From IMG/VR virus record IMGVR_UViG_2602041644_000008, positions 1 to 37,809 of that record: a DNA stretch of 37,809 bases; one strand, 5' to 3'. Position 1 is the first letter of the stretch, and each line of letters opens with the position of its first letter. Positions 5,937 to 37,809 of the stretch are shown here, piece by piece. Both the position numbers and the translations under genes were made by a program. The DNA is from a virus (Duplodnaviria; Heunggongvirae; Uroviricota; Caudoviricetes). The notes under the pieces were generated by a model. The model did not search any database. It was not told the DNA's origin and saw only the letters and a list, made by a program, of their open reading frames with translations.

Positions 5937-6040
5937 GTTAAATCTCCAGATAGTCGCAGCACCCGTTGCGCCGCATATCTGGTTATTCTATTACCCAAAA
6001 AACCATATATGGATAGAAAGACTGTGAATATGAATAGATA

Positions 6041-6055
6041 TTACCTTTCAGGTAA
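6041..6055. promoter_or_regulatory. Operator-like palindrome TTACC-TTTCA-GGTAA (copy 1 of 13)
   Basis: Perfect inverted repeat with A/T flanks, intergenic between the tailspike start and the small antirepressor-domain gene. Confidence 0.6.
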
Positions 6056-6092: not shown

Positions 6093-6112
6093 TACTGTAT
6101 AAATATACAGTT
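6093..6112. promoter_or_regulatory. LexA (SOS) box
   Basis: TACTGTATAAATATACAGTT versus consensus TACTGTATATATATACAGTA (CTGT-N8-ACAG intact); 21 bp upstream of the ATG at 6133. Confidence 0.65.
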
Positions 6113-6132
6113 ATTGCATGGAGAAGATTAAG

Positions 6133-6390
6133 ATGCAGCAGTATCACTATCCACTGGAAGACGGATTTACCGAAAGGATTCACACGCCGGGAGGCGTCAG
6201 GTCACTGGTGGAGGGATCGCACTTGATGAAATTACTCCGGGATCTCGATAAGGATGGATTTAATGTCGATGGCCCACTTGCCGAACTGACTGCACTGATT
6301 AACTACGTCACCAGCTCACAGATGTCTATGCAGGATCTGCAAACACATCTCGACTATTGTGCCGAACAATTACGAAAACAAACCACATAA
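6133..6390 (+). CDS. Stand-alone antirepressor C-terminal domain protein (candidate SOS-induced antirepressor)
   Basis: SD GGAG upstream of the ATG at 6133; 85 aa; clearly alignable with the C-terminal ~80 aa of the BRO-N antirepressor at 7536-8228 (IHTPGGV..LMKLL..DG..V.GPLAELT...Y......L.DLQTH). Confidence 0.55.
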   Translation: MQQYHYPLEDGFTERIHTPGGVRSLVEGSHLMKLLRDLDKDGFNVDGPLAELTALINYVTSSQMSMQDLQTHLDYCAEQLRKQTT

Positions 6391-7160: not shown

Positions 7161-7175
7161 TTACCTTAAAGGTAA
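7161..7175. promoter_or_regulatory. Operator-like palindrome TTACC-TTAAA-GGTAA (copy 2)
   Basis: Perfect inverted repeat 21 bp upstream of the minus-strand gene start (7140). Confidence 0.6.
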
Positions 7176-7253
7176 TATCTTGCTTTCAGGTGATCAAGCG
7201 TTAAACGCAATCAACCAAATAAGGTTGATTTTAATATTTCTTCGCGTTTATCA

Positions 7254-7268
7254 TTACCTTTTAGGTAA
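7254..7268. promoter_or_regulatory. Operator-like palindrome TTACC-TTTTA-GGTAA (copy 3)
   Basis: Perfect inverted repeat at the start of the structured leader upstream of the antirepressor. Confidence 0.6.
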
Positions 7269-7535
7269 ATTTACATCGCACTCCTCTTGTGCCATAGTAA
7301 TTGGGCACTGGCAAAATCCAGTGCCGGGATTGGTCTCCCGGATTACTACAGAGGCACATATGCCGCATAAGCGGTTTTTTTATGTGTAAAGCGCACCTAT
7401 TCTATGGTGAGCTGTGTGGGGGCACCGAAAGGTGCGCCGGGTTCCTTTGTAGCCGGTAAGACCAACTCTGCACAGTTCACCACCATCTGATTGGTCTCAG
7501 CGGTGGTGATTAACCTAACTACAAAGGTGATCGCC

Positions 7536-8228
7536 ATGAATACCAAACCTTCCATCTTTTCCTTTGAGTCATCCTGCCAGATCCGTATGTTCATGATTGA
7601 CGGAGAACCTTGGTTTGTCACCAAAGATGTGTGCAATGCTTTGAATATTGATGTTACACAAGCGAGAAAACTTGATAAAAAAGGCTGGAACAAAAAGGGG
7701 CTGTATTCAATACAGACCCCTGGTGGAATACAAGAACTATCCATCGTTTCAGAATCAGGTCTCTACATCCTTATTCTGCGTTGCAAAGAGGCAATGACAG
7801 AGGGAACGAGAGCGTTCAGATTTCTTGAATGGGTTACAGGTGAGGTTCTTCCTCAGATCCGCCGCACCGGAAGTTACATTAAAAACTCGCTCCCGCAGGA
7901 AGAACGCATAAAGATGGTTGCCGACCAGGTAGCCAACGCCACAGCATCAGCAATGATGCAGGCAATGAAGATAGAGAACAAAACCTACAGTGCCCCACTG
8001 AAGCCCGGCTACCGTAGCCTGATTCATTCTCCGTCTGGTGTTCTCGGCCTGACGGAGAACTCACTGCTGATGAATCTGCTGAACCAGTTACAGGAAGACG
8101 GGCACGATGTATCGGGCGCGGCGGCGGAGCTGACCACCATGTTCTGCTACATCGTCGGTGTGAGCAAATGCCTGCGTGATATCCAGACCCACGCGGAGTA
8201 CATCAACGACAAAGCAGGATTCTTCTGA
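7536..8228 (+). CDS. Antirepressor with N-terminal BRO-N domain and C-terminal antirepressor domain
   Basis: SD AAGGTGA before the ATG at 7536; N-terminal region (IRMFMIDGEPWFVTKDVCNAL ... GLYILILRCKEA ... FRFLEWV) matches the BRO-N fold pattern; C-terminal domain paralogous to the small gene at 6133-6390. Confidence 0.65.
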   Translation: MNTKPSIFSFESSCQIRMFMIDGEPWFVTKDVCNALNIDVTQARKLDKKGWNKKGLYSIQTPGGIQELSIVSESGLYILILRCKEAMTEGTRAFRFLEWVTGEVLPQIRRTGSYIKNSLPQEERIKMVADQVANATASAMMQAMKIENKTYSAPLKPGYRSLIHSPSGVLGLTENSLLMNLLNQLQEDGHDVSGAAAELTTMFCYIVGVSKCLRDIQTHAEYINDKAGFF

Positions 8229-25344: not shown

Positions 25345-25433
25345 ATCAATGACTCCGTACGCAATTAAATTATTACCAATTTAACCACATATGATTTATT
25401 TATCGTAGATAATTGACATTTAACGCACGAGTT

Positions 25434-25448
25434 ATTACCTTTCAGGTA
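25434..25448. promoter_or_regulatory. Operator-like palindrome TTACC-TTTCA-GGTAA (copy 5)
   Basis: Perfect inverted repeat ~90 bp upstream of the portal-side operon; TTGACA hexamer 17 bp upstream on the plus strand. Confidence 0.55.
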
Positions 25449-25771
25449 AGCAAAGAGTTCATTCCGGTTATTAACCTGACTGGCTTGTCGTTAAATTGAA
25501 CAGGTGGAGTGAGCTTTTATTTTGAGCAGTACGGCGTATGGCACATGCGCCGATAGCGGTCTGGATACGTTTAAGGGGTACCCTCCCTTGCTCGGGCAAA
25601 CGAACCAGGTAGCCGGAATGTGCAAGTCGAGCGGTTTTATTCCGCGCACGGGGATTCACCATCCCGGCGATTCGGTGTGACGCCTCGGAAGAGACGAGGG
25701 TACAACGATGAGAGCATTTATGGAGCCGCGACAAAGTGTGGCGCCTTAACAGGCTAAGTGCTCTCAGCGTT

Positions 25772-25848
25772 GTGGCATTAGCTCAGTTGGACAGAGCAAC
25801 CGCCTTCTAAGCGGTTGGTTGCAGGTTCGAATCCTGCATGCCACGCCA
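25772..25848 (+). tRNA. tRNA-Arg (anticodon UCU)
   Basis: 77 nt; acceptor stem GTGGCAT/ATGCCAC, D-stem GCTC/GAGC, anticodon stem ACCGC/GCGGT with loop CTTCTAA (anticodon TCT), T-arm GCAGG-TTCGAAT-CCTGC, discriminator G and encoded CCA. Confidence 0.85.
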
Positions 25849-26046: not shown

Positions 26047-26403
26047 ATGAACGACCAGCAAATCGAAAAAGAAATCGTTGAGAAAGGCAAAACCGCTCCG
26101 CGAGTTACGCCTCAATATATCGAAAGCATCATTCTTGAAGAGCATTTCTTTACTGCTTATGACGGCATTCGTGCTGCCAATATGGGCGTTGGCGATACGT
26201 GGACAGCGCATAAATCTACAGACCTCCTTACTTTCTGCGTACTGGTGCTGAAGAATGGCTTCACCGTCACCGGAGAGAGCGCATGTGCAAGCCCGGAAAA
26301 CTTTGATGCAGAAATTGGTCGGAAGATTGCCAGGCAGAATGCTGTAAACAAAATCTGGATGCTTGAAGGTTACTTGCTGAAGCAGAAGTTAAGCGAGCAA
26401 TAA
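26047..26403 (+). CDS. Small phage accessory protein (possibly Gp49-like)
   Basis: 118 aa on the strand opposite to the flanking terminase/portal genes; family assignment from recall only. Confidence 0.45.
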   Translation: MNDQQIEKEIVEKGKTAPRVTPQYIESIILEEHFFTAYDGIRAANMGVGDTWTAHKSTDLLTFCVLVLKNGFTVTGESACASPENFDAEIGRKIARQNAVNKIWMLEGYLLKQKLSEQ

Positions 26404-27969: not shown

Positions 27970-28562
27970 TGATTACCATCCTGACGTTCTTTGAGTCGCT
28001 TCCTGGCTGCCGCTATGCGATCAGCAATTGTCACATTCACATTAACATCCAGGCGTTCTTTGAACGCGTTGACATCAACATGCTTACCAATCAGCTCAAG
28101 GTTCTTCACCTTGTCAGGCCATTTAATTTTTTTGAGGATTGTCTCTATCGAATCCTCGTTCATGTTCATGATGGTCGATGACAGATCAAAGCCACTAAGC
28201 GTAGTGCGCCAGATTTTCGGCCACTCACGGATTGGTTTAAGGCTCCCATCGTCGTTGAGGATGTCGATCACGTCCATCTGGTCGATCTCCACCAGGCGCA
28301 TGAGAACGTAATCAGCACTGACGCGCATTCGTTTGTTGCGCTCCTCCATCAACTCGGCAATCCGTTTTTGAATGCGTTCATCGCGCATCATGACACTGGC
28401 TTTAACTGCCGCTGTATTTGGGGAGAATCCTGCGTTAATCGCTGCCTGAGTTTGGTTTTCAGGCGTTTTGATGTATGACTGGCAATAAGCCTCCTGCATT
28501 GTTGTTAGTGGCTTAAATTGCGTTGATTTGCGTTTATAGGTTTTAGGTTCAGCAGGCATCAT
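27966..28562 (-). CDS. Terminase small subunit
   Basis: Helical DNA-binding N-terminal region and oligomerisation-like C-terminus; start set at ATG-ATG (28562/28559) after SD GGTGG; the upstream TTG-initiated extension in the ORF track is low-complexity. Confidence 0.6.
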   Translation of the reverse strand: MMPAEPKTYKRKSTQFKPLTTMQEAYCQSYIKTPENQTQAAINAGFSPNTAAVKASVMMRDERIQKRIAELMEERNKRMRVSADYVLMRLVEIDQMDVIDILNDDGSLKPIREWPKIWRTTLSGFDLSSTIMNMNEDSIETILKKIKWPDKVKNLELIGKHVDVNAFKERLDVNVNVTIADRIAAARKRLKERQDGNQ

Positions 28563-28602
28563 AACCACCGTGGTAATAGTTACCGTTGTGGTAATAGTAC
28601 CA

Positions 28603-28631
28603 TGCAAAATAAAGCCGCCATAGTTGGCGGC
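28603..28631 (-). terminator. Terminator immediately upstream of terS (tR-prime-like)
   Basis: On the minus strand GCCGCCA-ACTA-TGGCGGC followed by TTTATTTTG. Confidence 0.45.
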
Positions 28632-28672
28632 AGTATTCAAAATCCATCAAATTCATCATGCATAATCTACTC

Positions 28673-30717: not shown

Positions 30718-31212
30718 TCACTCTCCTTTGATGCGAATGCCAGTGGTACTCATTCTCCTGATTTCCCAGAGCACACGAGGAACACCACCGTTTCCGACCG
30801 GATCGCGCTTACTCCGCATGGCGACGCTTGATTCCGCCCAGCTTTTTCTTGGAGGAAGCTCTTTCACACGAACAAAACCAGCTGCGCGAAGAGATGCTCC
30901 TGATTCATCTGCCTGGGTGTACGTAATACAACGTTGATAACCCATAGCCTTTGCTGCCCGCCAGACAGCACCATAAAGCGCGCTGTTAGCGTTGCGTTCT
31001 CCTGTGGTACATGTGCGATTTACTTCAAGCGTTAATCCATCGTCCAAATGTCGTGCAACAGGTCGACCAGCTGTCGCCACACCTATCAATTCTCCGGCAT
31101 TATTTCTCAGACCAATGCTGAATTTATGCCCCACTGGTGGTTTATTGTGTCGGTGGTGCTGTGCGATAAATTCCTGCGCCGCTTTCAGCGTTATAGGTGA
31201 AATGACCATCAC
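30718..31212 (-). CDS. Hypothetical nin-region protein
   Basis: 164-aa ORF with overlapping start/stop junctions; no family recognised. Confidence 0.4.
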   Translation of the reverse strand: MMVISPITLKAAQEFIAQHHRHNKPPVGHKFSIGLRNNAGELIGVATAGRPVARHLDDGLTLEVNRTCTTGERNANSALYGAVWRAAKAMGYQRCITYTQADESGASLRAAGFVRVKELPPRKSWAESSVAMRSKRDPVGNGGVPRVLWEIRRMSTTGIRIKGE

Positions 31213-32829: not shown

Positions 32830-33174
32830 TCAGAACTCTTCGATGTTCCAGCCACCACCTGCTTTCTTTGGCTTAACCGTTACCCCGATGATTCGGAACG
32901 GATACTGATCTGCGGCGACTTTGGTTTTCACCCTGGCGTCGTCGGTCCAGAAACCTTTCACTTCGTGCAGTTCCATCTCGCCGGTGGCGAGCATCACAGC
33001 AAAATCGGGCGTATAGAACGTGTTGTCAGCTAACCGCAACTTGATACCCTCGAATCGATACCAGGCGATTTCCCCTGCACGTTTACGCTGCTCAAGGTGC
33101 TGGCAATACGCAGATTCTGTTTTGTTCATCTGGCCTGTTTTGAGTCGACCAAGAGCCTGCATCTGTTTTCTCAT
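32830..33174 (-). CDS. DUF1064-like protein (PD-(D/E)XK fold likely)
   Basis: Motif YTPDFAV...GEMELHEVKG; first gene after the replication module. Confidence 0.4.
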   Translation of the reverse strand: MRKQMQALGRLKTGQMNKTESAYCQHLEQRKRAGEIAWYRFEGIKLRLADNTFYTPDFAVMLATGEMELHEVKGFWTDDARVKTKVAADQYPFRIIGVTVKPKKAGGGWNIEEF

Positions 33175-33177
33175 GAT

Positions 33178-33192
33178 TTACCCATGAGGTAA
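33178..33192. promoter_or_regulatory. Operator-like palindrome TTACC-CATGA-GGTAA (copy 6)
   Basis: Perfect inverted repeat 4-18 nt upstream of the 33174 start codon. Confidence 0.55.
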
Positions 33193-33239
33193 TTAAAAAC
33201 CACATAAGACACGAAATCAATAGATCTTAGAACATTTTA

Positions 33240-33254
33240 TTACCTAGCAGGTAA
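33240..33254. promoter_or_regulatory. Operator-like palindrome TTACC-TAGCA-GGTAA (copy 7)
   Basis: Perfect inverted repeat with A/T flanks, between the P gene end and the nin region. Confidence 0.55.
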
Positions 33255-33291
33255 TTATCAAGACGTAAAAAAATGCGCTATCGCGCTGGTA

Positions 33292-34092
33292 TTACTTGAT
33301 AAATCCTGCCGCCTTTCCCCGCCTGTATTCCTCCATCAGCCACTGCGCCGGTGTTATTCCCCCCAGGGTAGCGGCGTTAGGCATACACCCGAAACTTCGC
33401 CCTGGTGGATGGTAAACGCCTCTCCCTGTGTCCGGAGGCGTACTCATGGGTTCTGGCTTTGCCTGTATGCTGATCACCGGATCGGGTATCTGCTGTCCGG
33501 AAGCCACCTTTTTCGCCCAATCATCAAGCAGCCTGCGCGCGTGTTTCTCAACCTCAATCTCGCTAAGCTGGCGCTGATACATTGCACGGCGGGTATCACA
33601 TACGACCCAGTACATAACCGGATGCCGCCACGGGAATCTTTCGGGACCACCAGGATATAAACTTTTTTCCTTGCTGTACCGGTGAAACTCCGCCATCACA
33701 TCGTCAATGGTGACGCCAAGAACCATCTTGCTGTCTTTACACCACTTGATAAATTGCCCTGGCGACGGCCAGAACGGAGATTCACTGGCGCGGGCGTGGC
33801 GCATACCAGCAGAAACCTGTTCACGGGTTCGGATCCCCCCTTCGGCAAACGCAGCAATCCACTGCTGTTTTGCAGCAACTTCCTGCTCTGGCGTCTTCAG
33901 GTTGGTTACCACTGCCGCCGGAAACAGTTGTTTCAACTGTTTGAAAAGGGCATCAACAAGCCTCTCTGCTGACATGTTCACTACGTTGTCATTGTTGGTG
34001 TACTGATGCTCATAACCTGACATGCGAGAAAGGGCTTCTCCGTCACGGTTTTGTATCGCGGTAAAAACGTTGTTCACAAGAAATCCTCCCAT
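33292..34092 (-). CDS. Replication protein P-like (helicase loader)
   Basis: Extended similarity to recalled lambda P: FPAAVVTNL...QWIAAFAEGGIRTREQVSAGMRHARASESPFWPSPGQFIKWCKD versus lambda FPASLANRD...QWVLAFRENGITTMEQVNAGMRVARRQNRPFLPSPGQFVAWCRE. Confidence 0.75.
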   Translation of the reverse strand: MGGFLVNNVFTAIQNRDGEALSRMSGYEHQYTNNDNVVNMSAERLVDALFKQLKQLFPAAVVTNLKTPEQEVAAKQQWIAAFAEGGIRTREQVSAGMRHARASESPFWPSPGQFIKWCKDSKMVLGVTIDDVMAEFHRYSKEKSLYPGGPERFPWRHPVMYWVVCDTRRAMYQRQLSEIEVEKHARRLLDDWAKKVASGQQIPDPVISIQAKPEPMSTPPDTGRGVYHPPGRSFGCMPNAATLGGITPAQWLMEEYRRGKAAGFIK

Positions 34093-34889
34093 GCTTCAGG
34101 GCTGTTCCAGTGCGGAACGTTGTTATCAGGTAATGTTGATTGCTTCTGTCTGCTAATCTGCAGCCGCCTTGCCAGCTTCTGCTCCCACTGTGCCTGATGG
34201 TATGCCCTACCCTCAGCCATCCAGTAAATTCTGAACTCTGCAAGTTCCTGTGCCGTTGGCAGACTGTCCAGGTAGATCCCCTGCAATGAGCTTTTCCGAA
34301 GAAAGTCATCTGATGGCTGCCATTGTTCATGCATGACAAATTTGCCTAATTGCCCTGGCCCACCAGGAGGAACAAAGTTATTCATCACGGCGTTGTTTGC
34401 GCCGGGGTCATGATGCACAGAATCCCCGTTTTTTGTCCTGCTCTCCCTCTCTTGGTTAAATGACTGGTTATATGACTGGTTCTGGATCCCGTTTTTGGGA
34501 TCATTCAACATCCCGTTTTTGGGATCATTCAACATCCCGTTTTTGGGTATATTCCCGTTTTCGGGAACATTACCGTTTTCGGGTTCATTACCCCCTTCCC
34601 GGTTGCCTTTAATGTTCCCGTTTTTGGTTATATTAAGAGAGAAAACCCGCACTCTTTTCGTCGCTCCCTTTCTCTCTCCGGTATCTGAAATAAGCCCCAT
34701 TTTCATGAGCGATATAAGCCCGGCCTGCACGGTTTTTTTATTCAGGCAAGTGTCTTTAACGAGGCGTTCTATGCTGGGGTAGCAGAGGTTATATTCATCG
34801 GCTCTGTCAGCCATCGAGAGCAGTATGAGCTTTAATGACGAGCTACCTGGATCTGTCTCCCAGGCCCAATCTGTTGCATGTCTGCTCAT
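34074..34889 (-). CDS. Replication initiator, lambda O-like, with internal origin iterons
   Basis: SD GGAG before the ATG; N-terminal winged-helix-like region; repetitive peptide (NGNVPENGNIPKNGMLNDPKNGMLNDPKNG) encoded by the iteron array; directly upstream of P. Confidence 0.6.
   Translation of the reverse strand: MSRHATDWAWETDPGSSSLKLILLSMADRADEYNLCYPSIERLVKDTCLNKKTVQAGLISLMKMGLISDTGERKGATKRVRVFSLNITKNGNIKGNREGGNEPENGNVPENGNIPKNGMLNDPKNGMLNDPKNGIQNQSYNQSFNQERESRTKNGDSVHHDPGANNAVMNNFVPPGGPGQLGKFVMHEQWQPSDDFLRKSSLQGIYLDSLPTAQELAEFRIYWMAEGRAYHQAQWEQKLARRLQISRQKQSTLPDNNVPHWNSPEAWEDFL
34486..34631. repeat. Origin iteron array inside the O-like gene
   Basis: Four good and two degenerate copies of ATCCCGTTTTTGGGAT-like dyad units at 18-24 bp spacing. 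Confidence 0.6.
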
Positions 34890-34904
34890 GATTAATCTCC
34901 GCTA

Positions 34905-35105
34905 TCAGCTTGAATGTTGTGGGGAGGAATTAATCATGATCTGCTTAATCTCTGCCCTGATACGACGGTTTGATTCCATGGTGCACTCAACACAGTGTCC
35001 GTTGTAAACCCAGCGTTCACTGTCATGTCCGTGCTTACATGGTTTTCCGGTGTAGTAGCGTTTAAGTCCGCGCTTTGCGGCATCAATACGTGTAATGATT
35101 TCCAT
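34905..35105 (-). CDS. Small Cys/His-containing protein at the cII position (function unknown)
   Basis: ORF between cro-like gene and O; start ambiguous (35174, 35135 or 35105); motif CKHGH...C-x2-C. Confidence 0.3.
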   Translation of the reverse strand: MEIITRIDAAKRGLKRYYTGKPCKHGHDSERWVYNGHCVECTMESNRRIRAEIKQIMINSSPQHSS

Positions 35106-35185
35106 GGTAAGCCCTGTTATTAGTATTGGGATTACGGTCATTTTGTGCTGACACAAAAAAAAGATCAACCACATTTGGTTATTTA

Positions 35186-35200
35186 TTACCTTTGAGGTAC
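35186..35200. promoter_or_regulatory. Operator-like site TTACC-TTTGA-GGTAC (copy 8, one mismatch)
   Basis: Directly downstream (minus sense) of the cro terminator and upstream of the replication genes. Confidence 0.45.
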
Positions 35201-35209
35201 GAATAGATA

Positions 35210-35233
35210 TGAAAAGACCGCCGGGTGGCGGTC
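35210..35233 (-). terminator. tR1-like terminator downstream of cro
   Basis: On the minus strand GACCGCC-ACCC-GGCGGTC followed by TTTTCAT. Confidence 0.55.
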
Positions 35234-35255
35234 TACAGAGGGTTGTAGCTGGATA

Positions 35256-35486
35256 TCATGAGTAGAAGAAGTATGCCAGTTCTGCTTTTGAGTGCAGCCA
35301 TTGTCTTGATTTACAGGCTTTAAAAAGCCCATTCATCAATACCTTACCTGGCATTTTGCGCTTACCTGTTAAGTGAGTCTGGATATAGTGACTCGTCGTT
35401 CCGGCTTCCTGTGCGAAGGCTTCACGCTCATCCGGAGTAAGTGCAAGCCAGTGCTTTTTGAAATCGAAATGTCCGTTATCGCTCAT
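35256..35486 (-). CDS. Cro-like transcriptional regulator
   Basis: 76 aa, HTH-like segment; divergent from the repressor gene across an operator-rich region. Confidence 0.55.
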   Translation of the reverse strand: MSDNGHFDFKKHWLALTPDEREAFAQEAGTTSHYIQTHLTGKRKMPGKVLMNGLFKACKSRQWLHSKAELAYFFYS

Positions 35487-35522
35487 AGCTATTGCCTGAT
35501 ATTTATTTCAGATAATAAATAT

Positions 35523-35537
35523 TCACCTATAAGGTAA
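35523..35537. promoter_or_regulatory. Operator TCACC-TATAA-GGTAA (OR-like site 1, copy 9)
   Basis: In the cro/repressor intergenic region; lies in the spacer of a candidate cro promoter (minus strand TTGATT / 17 bp / GAATAT). Confidence 0.55.
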
Positions 35538-35553
35538 CAAAAATCAAGGATAG

Positions 35554-35568
35554 TTACCCATGAGGTGC
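35554..35568. promoter_or_regulatory. Operator TTACC-CATGA-GGTGC (OR-like site 2, copy 10, imperfect)
   Basis: Adjacent (2-bp gap) to site 3. Confidence 0.45.
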
Positions 35569-35570
35569 AT

Positions 35571-35585
35571 TTACCTGTTGGGTAA
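35571..35585. promoter_or_regulatory. Operator TTACC-TGTTG-GGTAA (OR-like site 3, copy 11)
   Basis: Perfect inverted repeat 56 bp upstream of the repressor start codon. Confidence 0.55.
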
Positions 35586-35640
35586 TATTGCTTTAAATTG
35601 AATCATCTTCTGATTCAGATATGAGGCGATTTTCCAGAAA

Positions 35641-36225
35641 ATGAAAAGTATCCAGGACGTCCGCAGGCAAAATCTCAACGACTTGATCGACCGTGAATTC
35701 AATGGTGTTCAGACGCGGATGGCTGAAAAACTTGGAACTCAGGCAAATCTGGTAAACCGCTGGGCTCTTGGCAAGAAGGTTATCGGCGACCAGGTTGCGC
35801 GAAAAATTGAAGCTGCCGCCAATAAACCCCGTAACTGGCTTGATATCGATCGCTCGCTTTCTCAGGAAGGTTTTCAGCCTGTCGGACCAAGCGACATTGG
35901 TCAACTGGCGGCTCACAACCTGGAACGCTGGATGAGCGAAAGCCGCGACCTTTCAACGCAGGGAAAACTTCACCGCGCATCCGGCGTCGCCCAGGTAACA
36001 ATCAGCCGCCTGTTAAACAATGAGGTCAGCGTTTCCATTTCCACCCTGGAGAATGTTGCATCCGCATTTGGGCGTCACGGATATGAATTACTGATTCACC
36101 CGCACGACCCCGCGACTATCAACTATGACCGCTCGCGCTACGCATTGTTACCTGAAACAGAGAAGGCAAAGATCGAAAGTTACATTGAATTTGTCATCAA
36201 CCAGAACGAAAAAAACAAACAATAA
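35641..36225 (+). CDS. Prophage repressor candidate, tandem HTH (XRE-type), no autocleavage domain
   Basis: 194 aa with two HTH-like segments (QTRMAEKLGTQANLVNRWALG and SGVAQVTISRLLNNEVSVSISTLENVA); no Ala-Gly/Ser-Lys protease signature seen; divergent from cro; followed by a terminator. Confidence 0.55.
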   Translation: MKSIQDVRRQNLNDLIDREFNGVQTRMAEKLGTQANLVNRWALGKKVIGDQVARKIEAAANKPRNWLDIDRSLSQEGFQPVGPSDIGQLAAHNLERWMSESRDLSTQGKLHRASGVAQVTISRLLNNEVSVSISTLENVASAFGRHGYELLIHPHDPATINYDRSRYALLPETEKAKIESYIEFVINQNEKNKQ

Positions 36226-36247
36226 AATCATATTTTTCAGTAAGTAA

Positions 36248-36272
36248 GCCGCCTTCTGGCGGCTTTTTTATT
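36248..36272 (+). terminator. Rho-independent terminator after the repressor gene
   Basis: GCCGCC-TTCT-GGCGGC followed by TTTTTTATT. Confidence 0.65.
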
Positions 36273-36282
36273 GCCTATTTGA

Positions 36283-36297
36283 TTACCTAACGGGTAA
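36283..36297. promoter_or_regulatory. Operator TTACC-TAACG-GGTAA (OL-like site, copy 12)
   Basis: Perfect inverted repeat with A/T flanks just after the repressor terminator. Confidence 0.55.
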
Positions 36298-36344
36298 TTT
36301 TTTTAACTCATATCTATTGACATCAAACCAGATACGCATAATTA

Positions 36345-36359
36345 TTACCTCAACGGTAA
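36345..36359. promoter_or_regulatory. Operator TTACC-TCAAC-GGTAA (OL-like site, copy 13) overlapping pL-like promoter
   Basis: TTGACA at 36317-36322, AT-rich -10 region, operator at the predicted start site; 20 nt upstream of the first early-left ORF. Confidence 0.55.
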
Positions 36360-36378
36360 CAGACCGAGGTAACAAGTT

Positions 36379-36531
36379 ATGCAGTGGAAAATCATCAACG
36401 GTTGGTACTGCGTTACTGCATGCGGATTCATGAGCTGGAAGTTCCGCACCTTACAGGAAGGCATTAAGTGGGCTTTCGTCAGCAAAGAAGCTCGCGATGT
36501 GGCCAACGATAACGAGATATGGGAGGGCTGA
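36379..36531 (+). CDS. Small early-left ORF (50 aa, uncertain)
   Basis: SD GAGGT 8 nt upstream; stop overlaps the next gene's RBS; below the ORF-track length cutoff. Confidence 0.3.
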   Translation: MQWKIINGWYCVTACGFMSWKFRTLQEGIKWAFVSKEARDVANDNEIWEG

Positions 36532-36533
36532 TA

Positions 36534-36833
36534 ATGAACGTTAATCAGCAGAAAAATCTTCAAAAAATCATGCTGGCATTCGACAAGGACTACCGCCTGT
36601 CAGAACAGCTATATGACCGACAAGTTGAACTGATTGAGAGTATCCGGCTTCATCAACTGGCATCAACTTTCGACGTTGTAACAGTTAAAGGCGTTCGCCA
36701 GGAAGTACTGGAGGCCGCTAAAGACAGTCCAGAGTTCGAAGAACTGATGGATTCCTACCGGCGCGAGGCAATGGCAATTATCGCCCGCTGGGATCTGGCT
36801 GATCAGCTTGATGGGCAGAGGGACGCGGCATGA
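36534..36833 (+). CDS. Hypothetical early protein
   Basis: SD GGAGGG upstream; 99 aa; coupled to the downstream gene by ATGA overlap. Confidence 0.45.
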   Translation: MNVNQQKNLQKIMLAFDKDYRLSEQLYDRQVELIESIRLHQLASTFDVVTVKGVRQEVLEAAKDSPEFEELMDSYRREAMAIIARWDLADQLDGQRDAA

Positions 36834-37036
36834 AACCAACACTCCTCTCATTGCTGCGAGGTGGAAAACACAGCATCCGAGATATGGCAAAGATTCTTGG
36901 TATCTCAAGATCGAAGGTTTCTTGGTTCATCGCTGAGCTTGAACGTCGCAAATGGGTAGAGGTAACCAGGAGCGCAATATATTTCCACGATGGAACCAGA
37001 TCCAACAAGCAGAACGAATACAAGGTTAAGTTATGA
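36830..37036 (+). CDS. Small HTH DNA-binding protein
   Basis: 68 aa; HTH-like segment MAKILGISRSKVSWFIAELERRKWV. Confidence 0.45.
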   Translation: MKPTLLSLLRGGKHSIRDMAKILGISRSKVSWFIAELERRKWVEVTRSAIYFHDGTRSNKQNEYKVKL

Positions 37037-37581
37037 ATACTGGCATCTATTTCGACATCAGCAATGAGGACTACCACGCCGGTGACGGCGTGAGTAAGTC
37101 GCAACTAGACATGGTTGCCAAGAATCCGGCGCTTCTTAAATGGGTTCAGGCAGCACCAGAAGACGAAGAGAAAAAGTCTGCACTGGATATGGGAACCGCA
37201 TTGCACTGTCTGCTTCTGGAGCCTGGAGAGTTCGACAAACGCTTCATTGTTTCACCGAAATTCGATCGTCGGACGAAACAAGGTAAAGCTGACGAAGAGG
37301 CATTTCTTCGTGATGTGGCGGATATGGGGATTACGGTACTTGATGCCGAGCAGTGGCGGAAACTGGAGCTGATGCGTGATAGCGCAATGGCTCACCCGGC
37401 GGCACGCTGGATGCTGGAAGCACCTGGTTACTGCGAAGCATCAATGTACTGGAACGATGAAGATACTGGTGAGTTGTGCCGCATTCGTCCAGACAAATGG
37501 CTGAACGAGCACAACGTGATCGTCGACGTGAAAAAGGTTGCAGATATGGACCGTTTTGCATGTCAACGCCACGATGTTTGA
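37033..37581 (+). CDS. RecE/exonuclease VIII-like PD-(D/E)XK nuclease, probably truncated by IS insertion
   Basis: N-terminus GIYFDISNEDYHAGDGVSKSQL and IVDVKK motif fit the recombination-exonuclease family; ORF stops a few codons after the catalytic motif where IS-derived sequence begins. Confidence 0.45.
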   Translation: MNTGIYFDISNEDYHAGDGVSKSQLDMVAKNPALLKWVQAAPEDEEKKSALDMGTALHCLLLEPGEFDKRFIVSPKFDRRTKQGKADEEAFLRDVADMGITVLDAEQWRKLELMRDSAMAHPAARWMLEAPGYCEASMYWNDEDTGELCRIRPDKWLNEHNVIVDVKKVADMDRFACQRHDV

Positions 37582-37620
37582 CCGTTATTTGCCATTTTCA
37601 TGCCCGCTAAGATACTTTCG

Positions 37621-37809
<189 letters not shown>

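Follow-up and report, generated by a model that had tools for sequence, protein, structure and literature searches.

The closest described relative of the element studied here is Escherichia phage phiV10, a Uetakevirus in the epsilon15 group of temperate podoviruses. We analysed a 37,809-nt stretch of the virus record IMGVR_UViG_2602041644_000008 (the window), and focused on the junction between its immunity and replication modules at 35133-35234. Positions 34800-36600 are 98.7% identical to phiV10, and the alignment spans most of the window. The two are the same element, the window copy differing in its integrated-prophage arrangement and an apparent insertion-sequence break at its right end. 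The phiV10 record (DQ126339.2) has the same 9/10 operator sequence at 33112 and labels a homologous hairpin between p41 and p42 (33078..33100) as a 'putative rho-independent terminator', and it annotates no operator or promoter at this junction.

The operator motif found throughout the window, TTACC-N5-GGTAA, is identical to that of the Rep repressor system of SPC32H and epsilon15. The part of PMC9638917 that summarises Kim et al. 2016 describes SPC32H Rep as a tetramer when bound to DNA, which fits the window's operator pairs 62 bp apart. In phiV10 and epsilon15 the motif is scattered over corresponding positions. These lie before terS, before a portal-region gene, at OL and OR, and after the replication genes, and several of the sites are labelled 'protein_bind: repressor' in the epsilon15 record AY150271.2. 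Between gp39 and gp40 of epsilon15 no repressor site is annotated; this interval contains a site with two mismatches and a hairpin without a U-tract.

The early-right regions of lambda and P22 have a similar order of elements: repressor, divergent operators, cro, a termination signal, a small gene and O/P-type genes, including a P-family protein. In lambda, the termination signal tR1 is Rho-dependent and is overcome by N at nutR. In contrast, the junction studied here has an intrinsic-type hairpin, a conserved promoter after the terminator and a small gene without a CII match, and no N, boxA or boxB was found. A single repressor with more than ten scattered sites, some of them ahead of late genes, also resembles P1 C1, which controls many dispersed operators, and mycobacteriophage L5 gp71, which binds about 30 sites. 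The stoperators of L5 are asymmetric sites inside transcription units that stop elongation, whereas the sites described here are symmetric 15-mers at intergenic promoters in a fixed register. The helix-turn-helix architecture of Rep makes kinship with C1 or gp71 unlikely. A weaker operator outside the promoter core, far from stronger sites and served by a multimeric repressor, is found in lac (O2/O3) and lambda (OL-OR); the junction resembles these in arrangement, and looping here would be hypothetical.

An earlier note on this DNA had suggested that the replication genes use a separate, repressor-controlled promoter rather than antitermination. We propose, with a probability of roughly 0.55, that the junction combines a terminator or attenuator, an upstream Rep operator, a dedicated sigma-70 promoter (P_rep) and a vestigial core operator, and that antitermination would be unneeded. 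The junction would be built like the phage's two other early junctions. Specifically, an intrinsic hairpin would end, or at least attenuate, the short PR-cro transcript, and a Rep operator of moderate quality would lie about 15 bp further on, in an upstream or auxiliary position near -60. An average sigma-70 promoter would then start a transcript near 35133 that carries the small gene, the O/DnaT-type initiator and the P-type protein, giving the replication genes their own promoter, independent of antitermination at the cro hairpin. The core-position operator would begin at the last T of the -10 hexamer, with its left half alone surviving. In the lysogen, tetrameric Rep would probably damp P_rep; from -60 it could bridge to the weak core half-site, contact OR 337-385 bp away, or mask the A/T-rich sequence from -40 to -60.

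The combination of terminator, operator and promoter is ordinary phage regulation and is annotated in part, the hairpin in phiV10 and the operator family in epsilon15. New are the assignment of the site at 35186, the recognition of a conserved promoter downstream of it, and the finding that several promoters share one design. If the proposal is true, induction and replication of a very common prophage type would be wired unlike lambda: an N checkpoint would be missing, and one tetrameric repressor would directly gate several modules, packaging genes included. This would bear on the prophage response to antirepressors and the SOS response, on replication-module exchange at the promoter spacer, and on the reliability of annotation pipelines for early operons in podoviral prophages.

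A conserved candidate promoter ahead of the replication genes

Between the hairpin and the small gene we identified the minus-strand hexamers TTGATC and CAAAAT, which have TTG, A2 and T6 at 17-bp spacing, as in sigma-70 promoters. The start predicted for this promoter, P_rep, lies near 35133, leaving about 28 nt to the ATG of the small gene. We aligned the interval from the cro-position gene to the small gene in 13 lineages, comprising the phiV10 type, Tyrion, BUCT554, epsilon15, SPC32H, a Klebsiella phage and seven prophage lineages (Citrobacter, Erwinia, Kluyvera, Buttiauxella, Pseudocitrobacter, Scandinavium and Klebsiella). Mean column identity was 66%, and the blocks GGTAA, GGTTGAT and AAAAT were invariant. 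Furthermore, in a population sample of 79 phiV10-like loci from IMG/VR (the close relatives), every locus had TTGAT and CAAAAT, 16-18 bp apart. The spacer and downstream sequence were different in 16 of the 79, starting exactly after the -35 hexamer, and both hexamers were kept. A joint placed inside the promoter with both hexamers retained is hard to explain unless P_rep is used. A separate promoter for the replication module is well supported by this conservation, and P_rep is predicted to fire. A literature search for Uetakevirus transcript maps found none.

The same joint was seen elsewhere. TL-2011b, ZX5 and HEMP4, like the 16 IMG/VR loci and some E. coli genomes, cease to resemble the window exactly at 35163, where the -35 hexamer ends on the minus strand. 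Beyond it lies a diverged replication module with its own spacer and TGTGCAAAAT. The published ZX5 paper contains no operator or terminator analysis.

Other promoter candidates in this interval were rejected. Minus-strand TTCATA-17-GGTAAT and TTCGTA-centred variants, which would place the operator in the spacer, have a -10 without A2 or T6, and their hexamers are not conserved. A plus-strand PRE-like sequence, TCTACA-16-TATCAT (35232-35259), is not conserved in Tyrion or BUCT554, is polymorphic in the close relatives and is probably due to chance. The palindrome ATCAACC-N6-GGTTGAT, considered as a possible protein-binding site, is found also at 7209-7230; at the cro-side locus its left arm is unconserved.

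A promoter design shared with PL and P3

The layout of the junction recurs at two other early promoters, PL and P3 (Table 1; the P3 terminator is annotated in phiV10 at 35038..35057). In both, 19 bp separate the upstream operator from the -35 hexamer. The centres of the paired operators are 61-63 bp apart (nearly always 62) in every relative examined, and in all relatives a terminator comes shortly ahead of the upstream operator. About 62 bp corresponds to about six helical turns and fits a tetramer-binding repressor. At PL, P3, the 7254 and 8301 operators, the terS promoter (TGGTACTAT, with an extended -10) and P_rep, the -10 hexamer and an operator share one T, which is the final base of the hexamer and the initial base of the operator; at P_rep the operator concerned is the core-position half-site. 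In BUCT554 the core-position site matches the motif at 9/10 positions (TTACC-GTAAT-AGTAA).

The cro-side junction reads terminator, operator, 17 bp, TTGATC, 17 bp, and CAAAAT running into TGACC. Because this order is the same as at PL and P3, the 35186 operator is best read as the putative upstream operator of a third promoter of the PL/P3 type. The sequence from the operator to the -35 hexamer contains an A/T-rich tract and a conserved A(A/T)CC-N6-GG motif, and a similar motif is present in the PL and P3 spacers.

TTGATA-16-TAAAAT (33261-33234) was also considered as the promoter after the P-type gene. It is the best consensus match there, but its -35 is unconserved, and the conserved CTATTGATT lies 41 bp downstream.

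The putative Rep operator at 35186

The earlier note had pointed to an operator-like site after the hairpin, and the site held up. The sequence at 35186-35200 (TTACC-TTTGA-GGTAC) is a 15-bp inverted repeat that matches TTACC-N5-GGTAA at 9/10 positions. Its centre, 35193, is at about -60 from the predicted start, and it lies about 15 bp beyond the hairpin. Mononucleotide shuffles predict 0.04 exact and 1.15 one-mismatch copies of the motif; the window contains 11 and 5, respectively. Allowing up to one mismatch, there are 16 matches against 0.67 expected. The exact copies, which include those flanking the rep-cro divergent region and PL, are all located between long open reading frames (ORFs), except the copy at 28580, which falls within a TTG-started terS ORF call. 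With a weight matrix built from 59 exact sites, the 35186 site ranks 12th in the window, just after the exact sites and above the OR site at 35523. Rep would be expected to bind at this site.

All eleven other relatives examined use the same operator motif, and the OR arrangement is the same in all relatives. The right half of the 35186 site, GGTAA, is invariant in the 13 aligned lineages and in 79/79 close relatives. The equivalent site scores well in Tyrion, Klebsiella phage Kp4865, the Pseudocitrobacter prophage (L013) and the epsilon15 type, the last with two mismatches (ACACC).

We also observed a perfect 7-bp inverted repeat, TGAATCA-TCTTC-TGATTCA (35599-35617), in the stretch that separates the OR operators from the start codon of rep; part of it (TGAAT...ATTCA) is kept in Tyrion and BUCT554. 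A second regulator of the rep promoter, for example the Cro-like protein, could act at this repeat.

The hairpin behind the cro-position gene

The hairpin t_cro begins 21 nt past the stop codon of the cro-position gene, on the coding strand. Its stem has 8 bp, including 6 G-C pairs, closed by a tetraloop, and alone it folds at -14.5 kcal/mol. The 163-nt intergenic RNA has a z of -3.4 relative to shuffles, and t_cro is part of its minimum-energy structure. The 3' tail is UUUCAUAUCU (UUUUCAUAU as RNA in the phiV10 type). Its U run is short: UUUU, including the last stem base, is followed by CAUAUCU, with 5 T in the first 8 positions. The run is weaker than those at the rep terminator (TTTTTATT) and the pre-terS terminator (TTTATTTT). 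A 'strong terminator' had been claimed here; its hairpin is supported by the stem and by the phiV10 annotation, and the word 'strong' is not, given a run of four U and none in the epsilon15 branch. Termination at t_cro, and the strength of that termination, are predictions.

A hairpin was found at this position in 12/12 relatives scored, at -9.8 to -15.4 kcal/mol, with differing stems. The Scandinavium lineage (L014) has GCCACC/GGTGGC and most others GCCGCC/GGCGGC; the hairpins of L014 and L015 were read from the alignment, outside the energy scoring. Among the 79 close relatives, the only stem changes are to G.U wobble pairs, and the loop varies freely. Since the hairpin is kept with altered stems, and since stem changes are restricted in this way beside a free loop, the pattern indicates that the structure is under selection. 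The stem is followed by a U-tract in the phiV10, Tyrion, BUCT554, Erwinia, Buttiauxella, Pseudocitrobacter and Scandinavium lineages. The conserved block that follows the stem (35201..35214) is identical also in Tyrion, BUCT554 and the prophages L010 and L013, and is absent from the epsilon15 branch.

A 10-11-mer, (TC)ATATCTATT(C), adjoins three Rep operators: past the cro hairpin (35201-35211, minus), directly upstream of the PL -35 hexamer (TCATATCTATT, 36308-36318, plus) and beside the 6041 operator (6032-6041, minus). The PL copy is kept in relatives as TCAT(A/G)(T/C)CTATTGAC. We rejected a second terminator candidate, AACCAAATGTGGTT followed by T8 (35155-35181). It has 4-5 weak pairs and is not in the minimum-energy fold, and its right arm is the -35 context.

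Possible read-through from PR and variation of the operator

Several observations weigh against the proposed arrangement. P_rep matches 8/12 consensus positions and was missed by our promoter consensus scan, which listed candidates from a cut-off of 9/12. The hairpin is kept without a U-tract in the Kluyvera lineage (tail UCUGCAUUUC) and in the epsilon15, SPC32H, Citrobacter and Klebsiella lineages (tails UCCUUCCUGC and UCCUGCCUCU; UCCUUCC as RNA in the epsilon15 type). Because the U-tract is missing there, PR transcripts would probably run on into the replication genes in this part of the family. Some read-through at t_cro is likely in the phiV10 type too, and the promoter route and PR read-through may coexist.

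These tails bear on the main rival explanation, which we consider rather unlikely, in which the replication genes are transcribed mainly from PR. The hairpin would then be a partial terminator or an RNA 3'-end or stability element, and TTGATC/CAAAAT a minor promoter at most. The operator would be an auxiliary site from which tetrameric Rep loops to OR to shut PR, or blocks stray polymerases in the lysogen. Both ideas have analogies: lambda tR1 leaks without N, and lac O2 assists O1. In its favour, the window's hairpin has a short U-tract, the epsilon15, SPC32H, Klebsiella and Kluyvera relatives keep the hairpin with no U-tract at all, and the 35186 site is at about -60 and not in the promoter core. 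The distances to OR sites, 337 and 368 bp, are near whole helical turns, and the three sites of OR are an odd number for a repressor described in the part of PMC9638917 cited above as binding as a tetramer. However, the phase to OR differs between branches (337 vs 341 bp), and the helical phasing of the 35186 site relative to OR gave no clear signal. Transcription mainly from PR also leaves unexplained the invariant TTGAT/AAAAT at fixed spacing across a replaced spacer, and a layout that copies PL and P3.

The operator itself raises further objections to Rep control of P_rep. The left half of the site (read on the minus strand) is polymorphic in the 79 close relatives (GTACC in 44, GCACC in 33 and TCACC in 2), its ACC and the right-half GGTAA being constant. 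The equivalent site scores like background in BUCT554 and in the Erwinia, Buttiauxella and Scandinavium lineages and one Klebsiella prophage (coded L010, L012, L014 and L015). PL, OR and P3 operators are near-perfect in all lineages; since the 35186 site varies while these do not, selection on Rep binding at the cro-side junction is, on this comparison, weaker or more variable. In addition, the operator lies outside the promoter core and has no full operator partner 62 bp away. The distance from the upstream to the core position is 59-60 bp, as opposed to 62 bp at PL and P3, a departure from the phage's own spacing that also distinguishes the junction from looping systems.

This variation would be expected if the promoter were real and the 35186 operator were a relic, or if its GGTAAT half served as an upstream promoter element or as the site of an activator or Cro-like protein, with lysogen silencing achieved by other means. 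The loss of the left half in several genera beside an invariant GGTAA(T/C) agrees with such a role, as do the A/T-rich tract and the A(A/T)CC-N6-GG motif before the -35 hexamer, which has a counterpart in the PL and P3 spacers. We regard this explanation as improbable. In the window the site matches at 9/10 positions and outranks an accepted OR site, and the variant left halves GCACC and TCACC also occur in the OR sites 35554 and 35523. BUCT554 has lost the 35186 equivalent but has a 9/10 core operator, as if Rep control had been kept in another way.

We therefore retain the reading of terminator, upstream operator and dedicated promoter, in which Rep control of P_rep would be less secure than P_rep itself. 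The separate promoter suggested in the earlier note is borne out by the conservation of TTGATC-17-CAAAAT; the case for its repressor control is weakened by the position of the site at about -60 and by the polymorphic left half.

Searches for antitermination

The earlier note saw no N-like protein among the early-left ORFs, and Pfam, PHROGs and NCBIfam searches were all negative in agreement with this. Across the early-left and early-right ORFs, these databases gave no antiterminator family, N and Q families included. In addition, boxA is not enriched and is absent from the PR and PL transcripts, no nut site was found, and Rfam gave no match in 35050-35650, either at the gathering threshold or at E up to 1, a negative that is limited for put-like RNA by the possible absence of HK022 put from Rfam. 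The annotation of the phiV10 genome is full and names no antiterminator.

PR transcripts could still be carried past the hairpin by a protein or RNA that escapes recognition, in the manner of N/nut, Q or HK022 put. A lack of matches in profile libraries is no proof, and the phage encodes small early proteins of no known function (PHROG 898, 856, 1081 and 536). The first early-left products are PHROG 898 and PHROG 856 proteins of unknown function and a 68-aa winged-helix protein. Hidden antitermination is nevertheless highly improbable in view of the searches above. The first early-left product is not arginine-rich, and the 21 nt from the cro stop to the hairpin, with no long leader seen ahead of cro, leave little room for nut or put and none for a put-like RNA of about 70 nt. 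The conserved downstream promoter would also make antitermination unnecessary.

A wider reading is possible and is offered tentatively. Uetakeviruses may do without any antitermination, using terminator-bounded modules and a fixed promoter design in which the -10 hexamer runs onto a Rep operator. Three early modules would carry a second operator 60-62 bp upstream, an arrangement that would suit a tetrameric repressor. P_rep, whose core site is degenerate and whose upstream site is polymorphic, would be the weak-operator member, the first or leakiest to open, and would set the order of derepression, and its spacer would be the recombination joint of the replication module.

Gene content of the region

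The features discussed are listed in Table 1. The immunity region was found in 541/5,426 complete E. coli genomes.

Table 1. Coordinates of the genes and regulatory features in the window
Feature	Position	Strand	Details
Upstream (auxiliary-position) Rep operator, candidate	35186..35200	both	TTACCTTTGAGGTAC; minus strand GTACC-TCAAA-GGTAA
Degenerate core-position operator	35126..35140	minus	TGACC-GTAAT-CCCAA, 6/10; left half alone recognisable
P_rep -35, candidate	35163..35168	minus	TTGATC; 17 bp downstream of 35186 operator
P_rep -10, candidate	35140..35145	minus	CAAAAT; 17-bp spacer 35146..35162
Terminator hairpin t_cro, predicted	35215..35234	minus	AGACCGCC-ACCC-GGCGGTCT, then TTTCATATCT
U-rich tail and conserved block	35201..35214	minus	TTTCATATCTATTC; identical in 77/79 close relatives
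OR	35523-35537, 35554-35568, 35571-35585	both	three operators between cro-like gene and rep
PL module	36246..36359	plus	rep terminator 36246-36265; upstream operator 36283-36297
PL promoter	-35 36317-36322; -10 36340-36345	plus	TTGACA, 17 bp, AATTAT; core operator 36345-36359
P3 module	33178..33286	minus	hairpin 33275-33286 + T7; upstream operator 33240-33254
P3 promoter	-35 33215-33220; -10 33192-33197	minus	TTGATT, 17 bp, TTTAAT; core operator 33178-33192; CTATTGATT conserved
Repressor Rep	35641..36225	plus	194 aa; divergent from cro-position gene; Pfam HTH_3
Cro-position gene	35256..35486	minus	76 aa; from ORF list; homologue of phiV10 p41, epsilon15 gp39
Small gene	34905..35105	minus	66 aa; homologue of phiV10 p42, epsilon15 gp40; first of replication module
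O-position replication initiator	34074..34889	minus	HTH_36 and DnaT domains (Pfam); internal iterons 34453-34592
Lambda P-family replication protein	33292..34092	minus	Pfam PF06992, E 1.5e-56

Rep gave a full-length phmmer match to PDB 5D50, the repressor of Salmonella phage SPC32H (E 4e-42), and NLVNRW in its N-terminal helix-turn-helix is conserved relative to 5D50. The cro-position protein matched PHROG 35, 'transcriptional repressor' (E 2.6e-12), with a weak profile match to the immunity-repressor helix-turn-helix 8bny (E 0.22), and is 59-84% identical in other genera. From the position of its gene, the 76-aa product would play the role of Cro. The next gene had been described as a cII-position gene ahead of O and P genes. 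That order is correct, and the CII label is not supported, as the 66-aa product matched no Pfam or NCBIfam family, lambda CII included. It belongs to PHROG 1081 (function unknown) and has a Cys/His motif.

Within the O-position gene, iteron-like tandem repeats consist of 24-bp units of ATCCCGTTTTTGGGATCATTCAAC (2.6 copies, 100% match) followed by 18-bp units of CCGTTTTCGGG type. These repeats are the probable replication origin. Further along the early-right operon, the 164-aa product of 30718-31212 (minus) has a match to PHROG 1384, 'Mom-like DNA modification protein' (E 4e-44). At the other end of the window, a recE-like PD-(D/E)XK exonuclease gene begins at 37033, and similarity to phiV10 stops within it at 37560. 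After it, in the stretch of about 37560-37809, a minus-strand ORF resembles, by eye, the C-terminus of an IS21-family IstB helper protein, and an insertion sequence appears to interrupt the early-left operon at this end.

Other possible Rep-linked units

Ahead of terS, a terminator (28631..28614) is followed by TGGTACTAT running into an operator (28594..28580), a second operator (28576..28562) and an ATG at about 28562 or 28559. On this layout, Rep would gate the packaging and structural genes directly. If terS began at the TTG at 28640, as in the ORF calls (phiV10 p01), the gene would contain the terminator and operators; this start is therefore probably an error.

Rfam placed an isrK Hfq-binding RNA (74.7 bits) and a C4 antisense RNA (78.2 bits) next to each other at 7305-7487. 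The pair is directly upstream of a 245-aa ORF (7491-8228) that aligns with the phiV10 Bro-N anti-immunity gene p23. Rep operators are located at 7161-7175 and 7254-7268, and a promoter, TTGATT-18-TATCAT, runs into the 7254 operator. The RNA pair and the ORF together look like an antisense-controlled antirepressor module of the P1/P7 immI type.

A perfect LexA-box-like palindrome, CTGTATAAATATACAG, was found at 6095-6110, 8 bp ahead of the plus-strand ORF 6118-6390 and 40 bp downstream of the Rep operator at 6041-6055. This ORF encodes 90 aa, belongs to PHROG 450 and has a weak match to an antirepressor C-terminus. The small antirepressor of SPC32H is LexA-controlled. If ORF 6118-6390 likewise encodes a LexA-controlled antirepressor, the prophage may have two antirepressor systems.

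Finally, a tRNA-Arg gene (anticodon TCT, 25772-25848, plus) is oriented opposite to the late genes. It overlaps an 83-aa ORF, the counterpart of phiV10 p04. Upstream of it are a Rep operator (25435-25449) and TTGACA (25413-25418), and downstream is an ORF resembling Sf6 gene 66 (26047-26403). This region may be a small repressor-gated unit within the late region.

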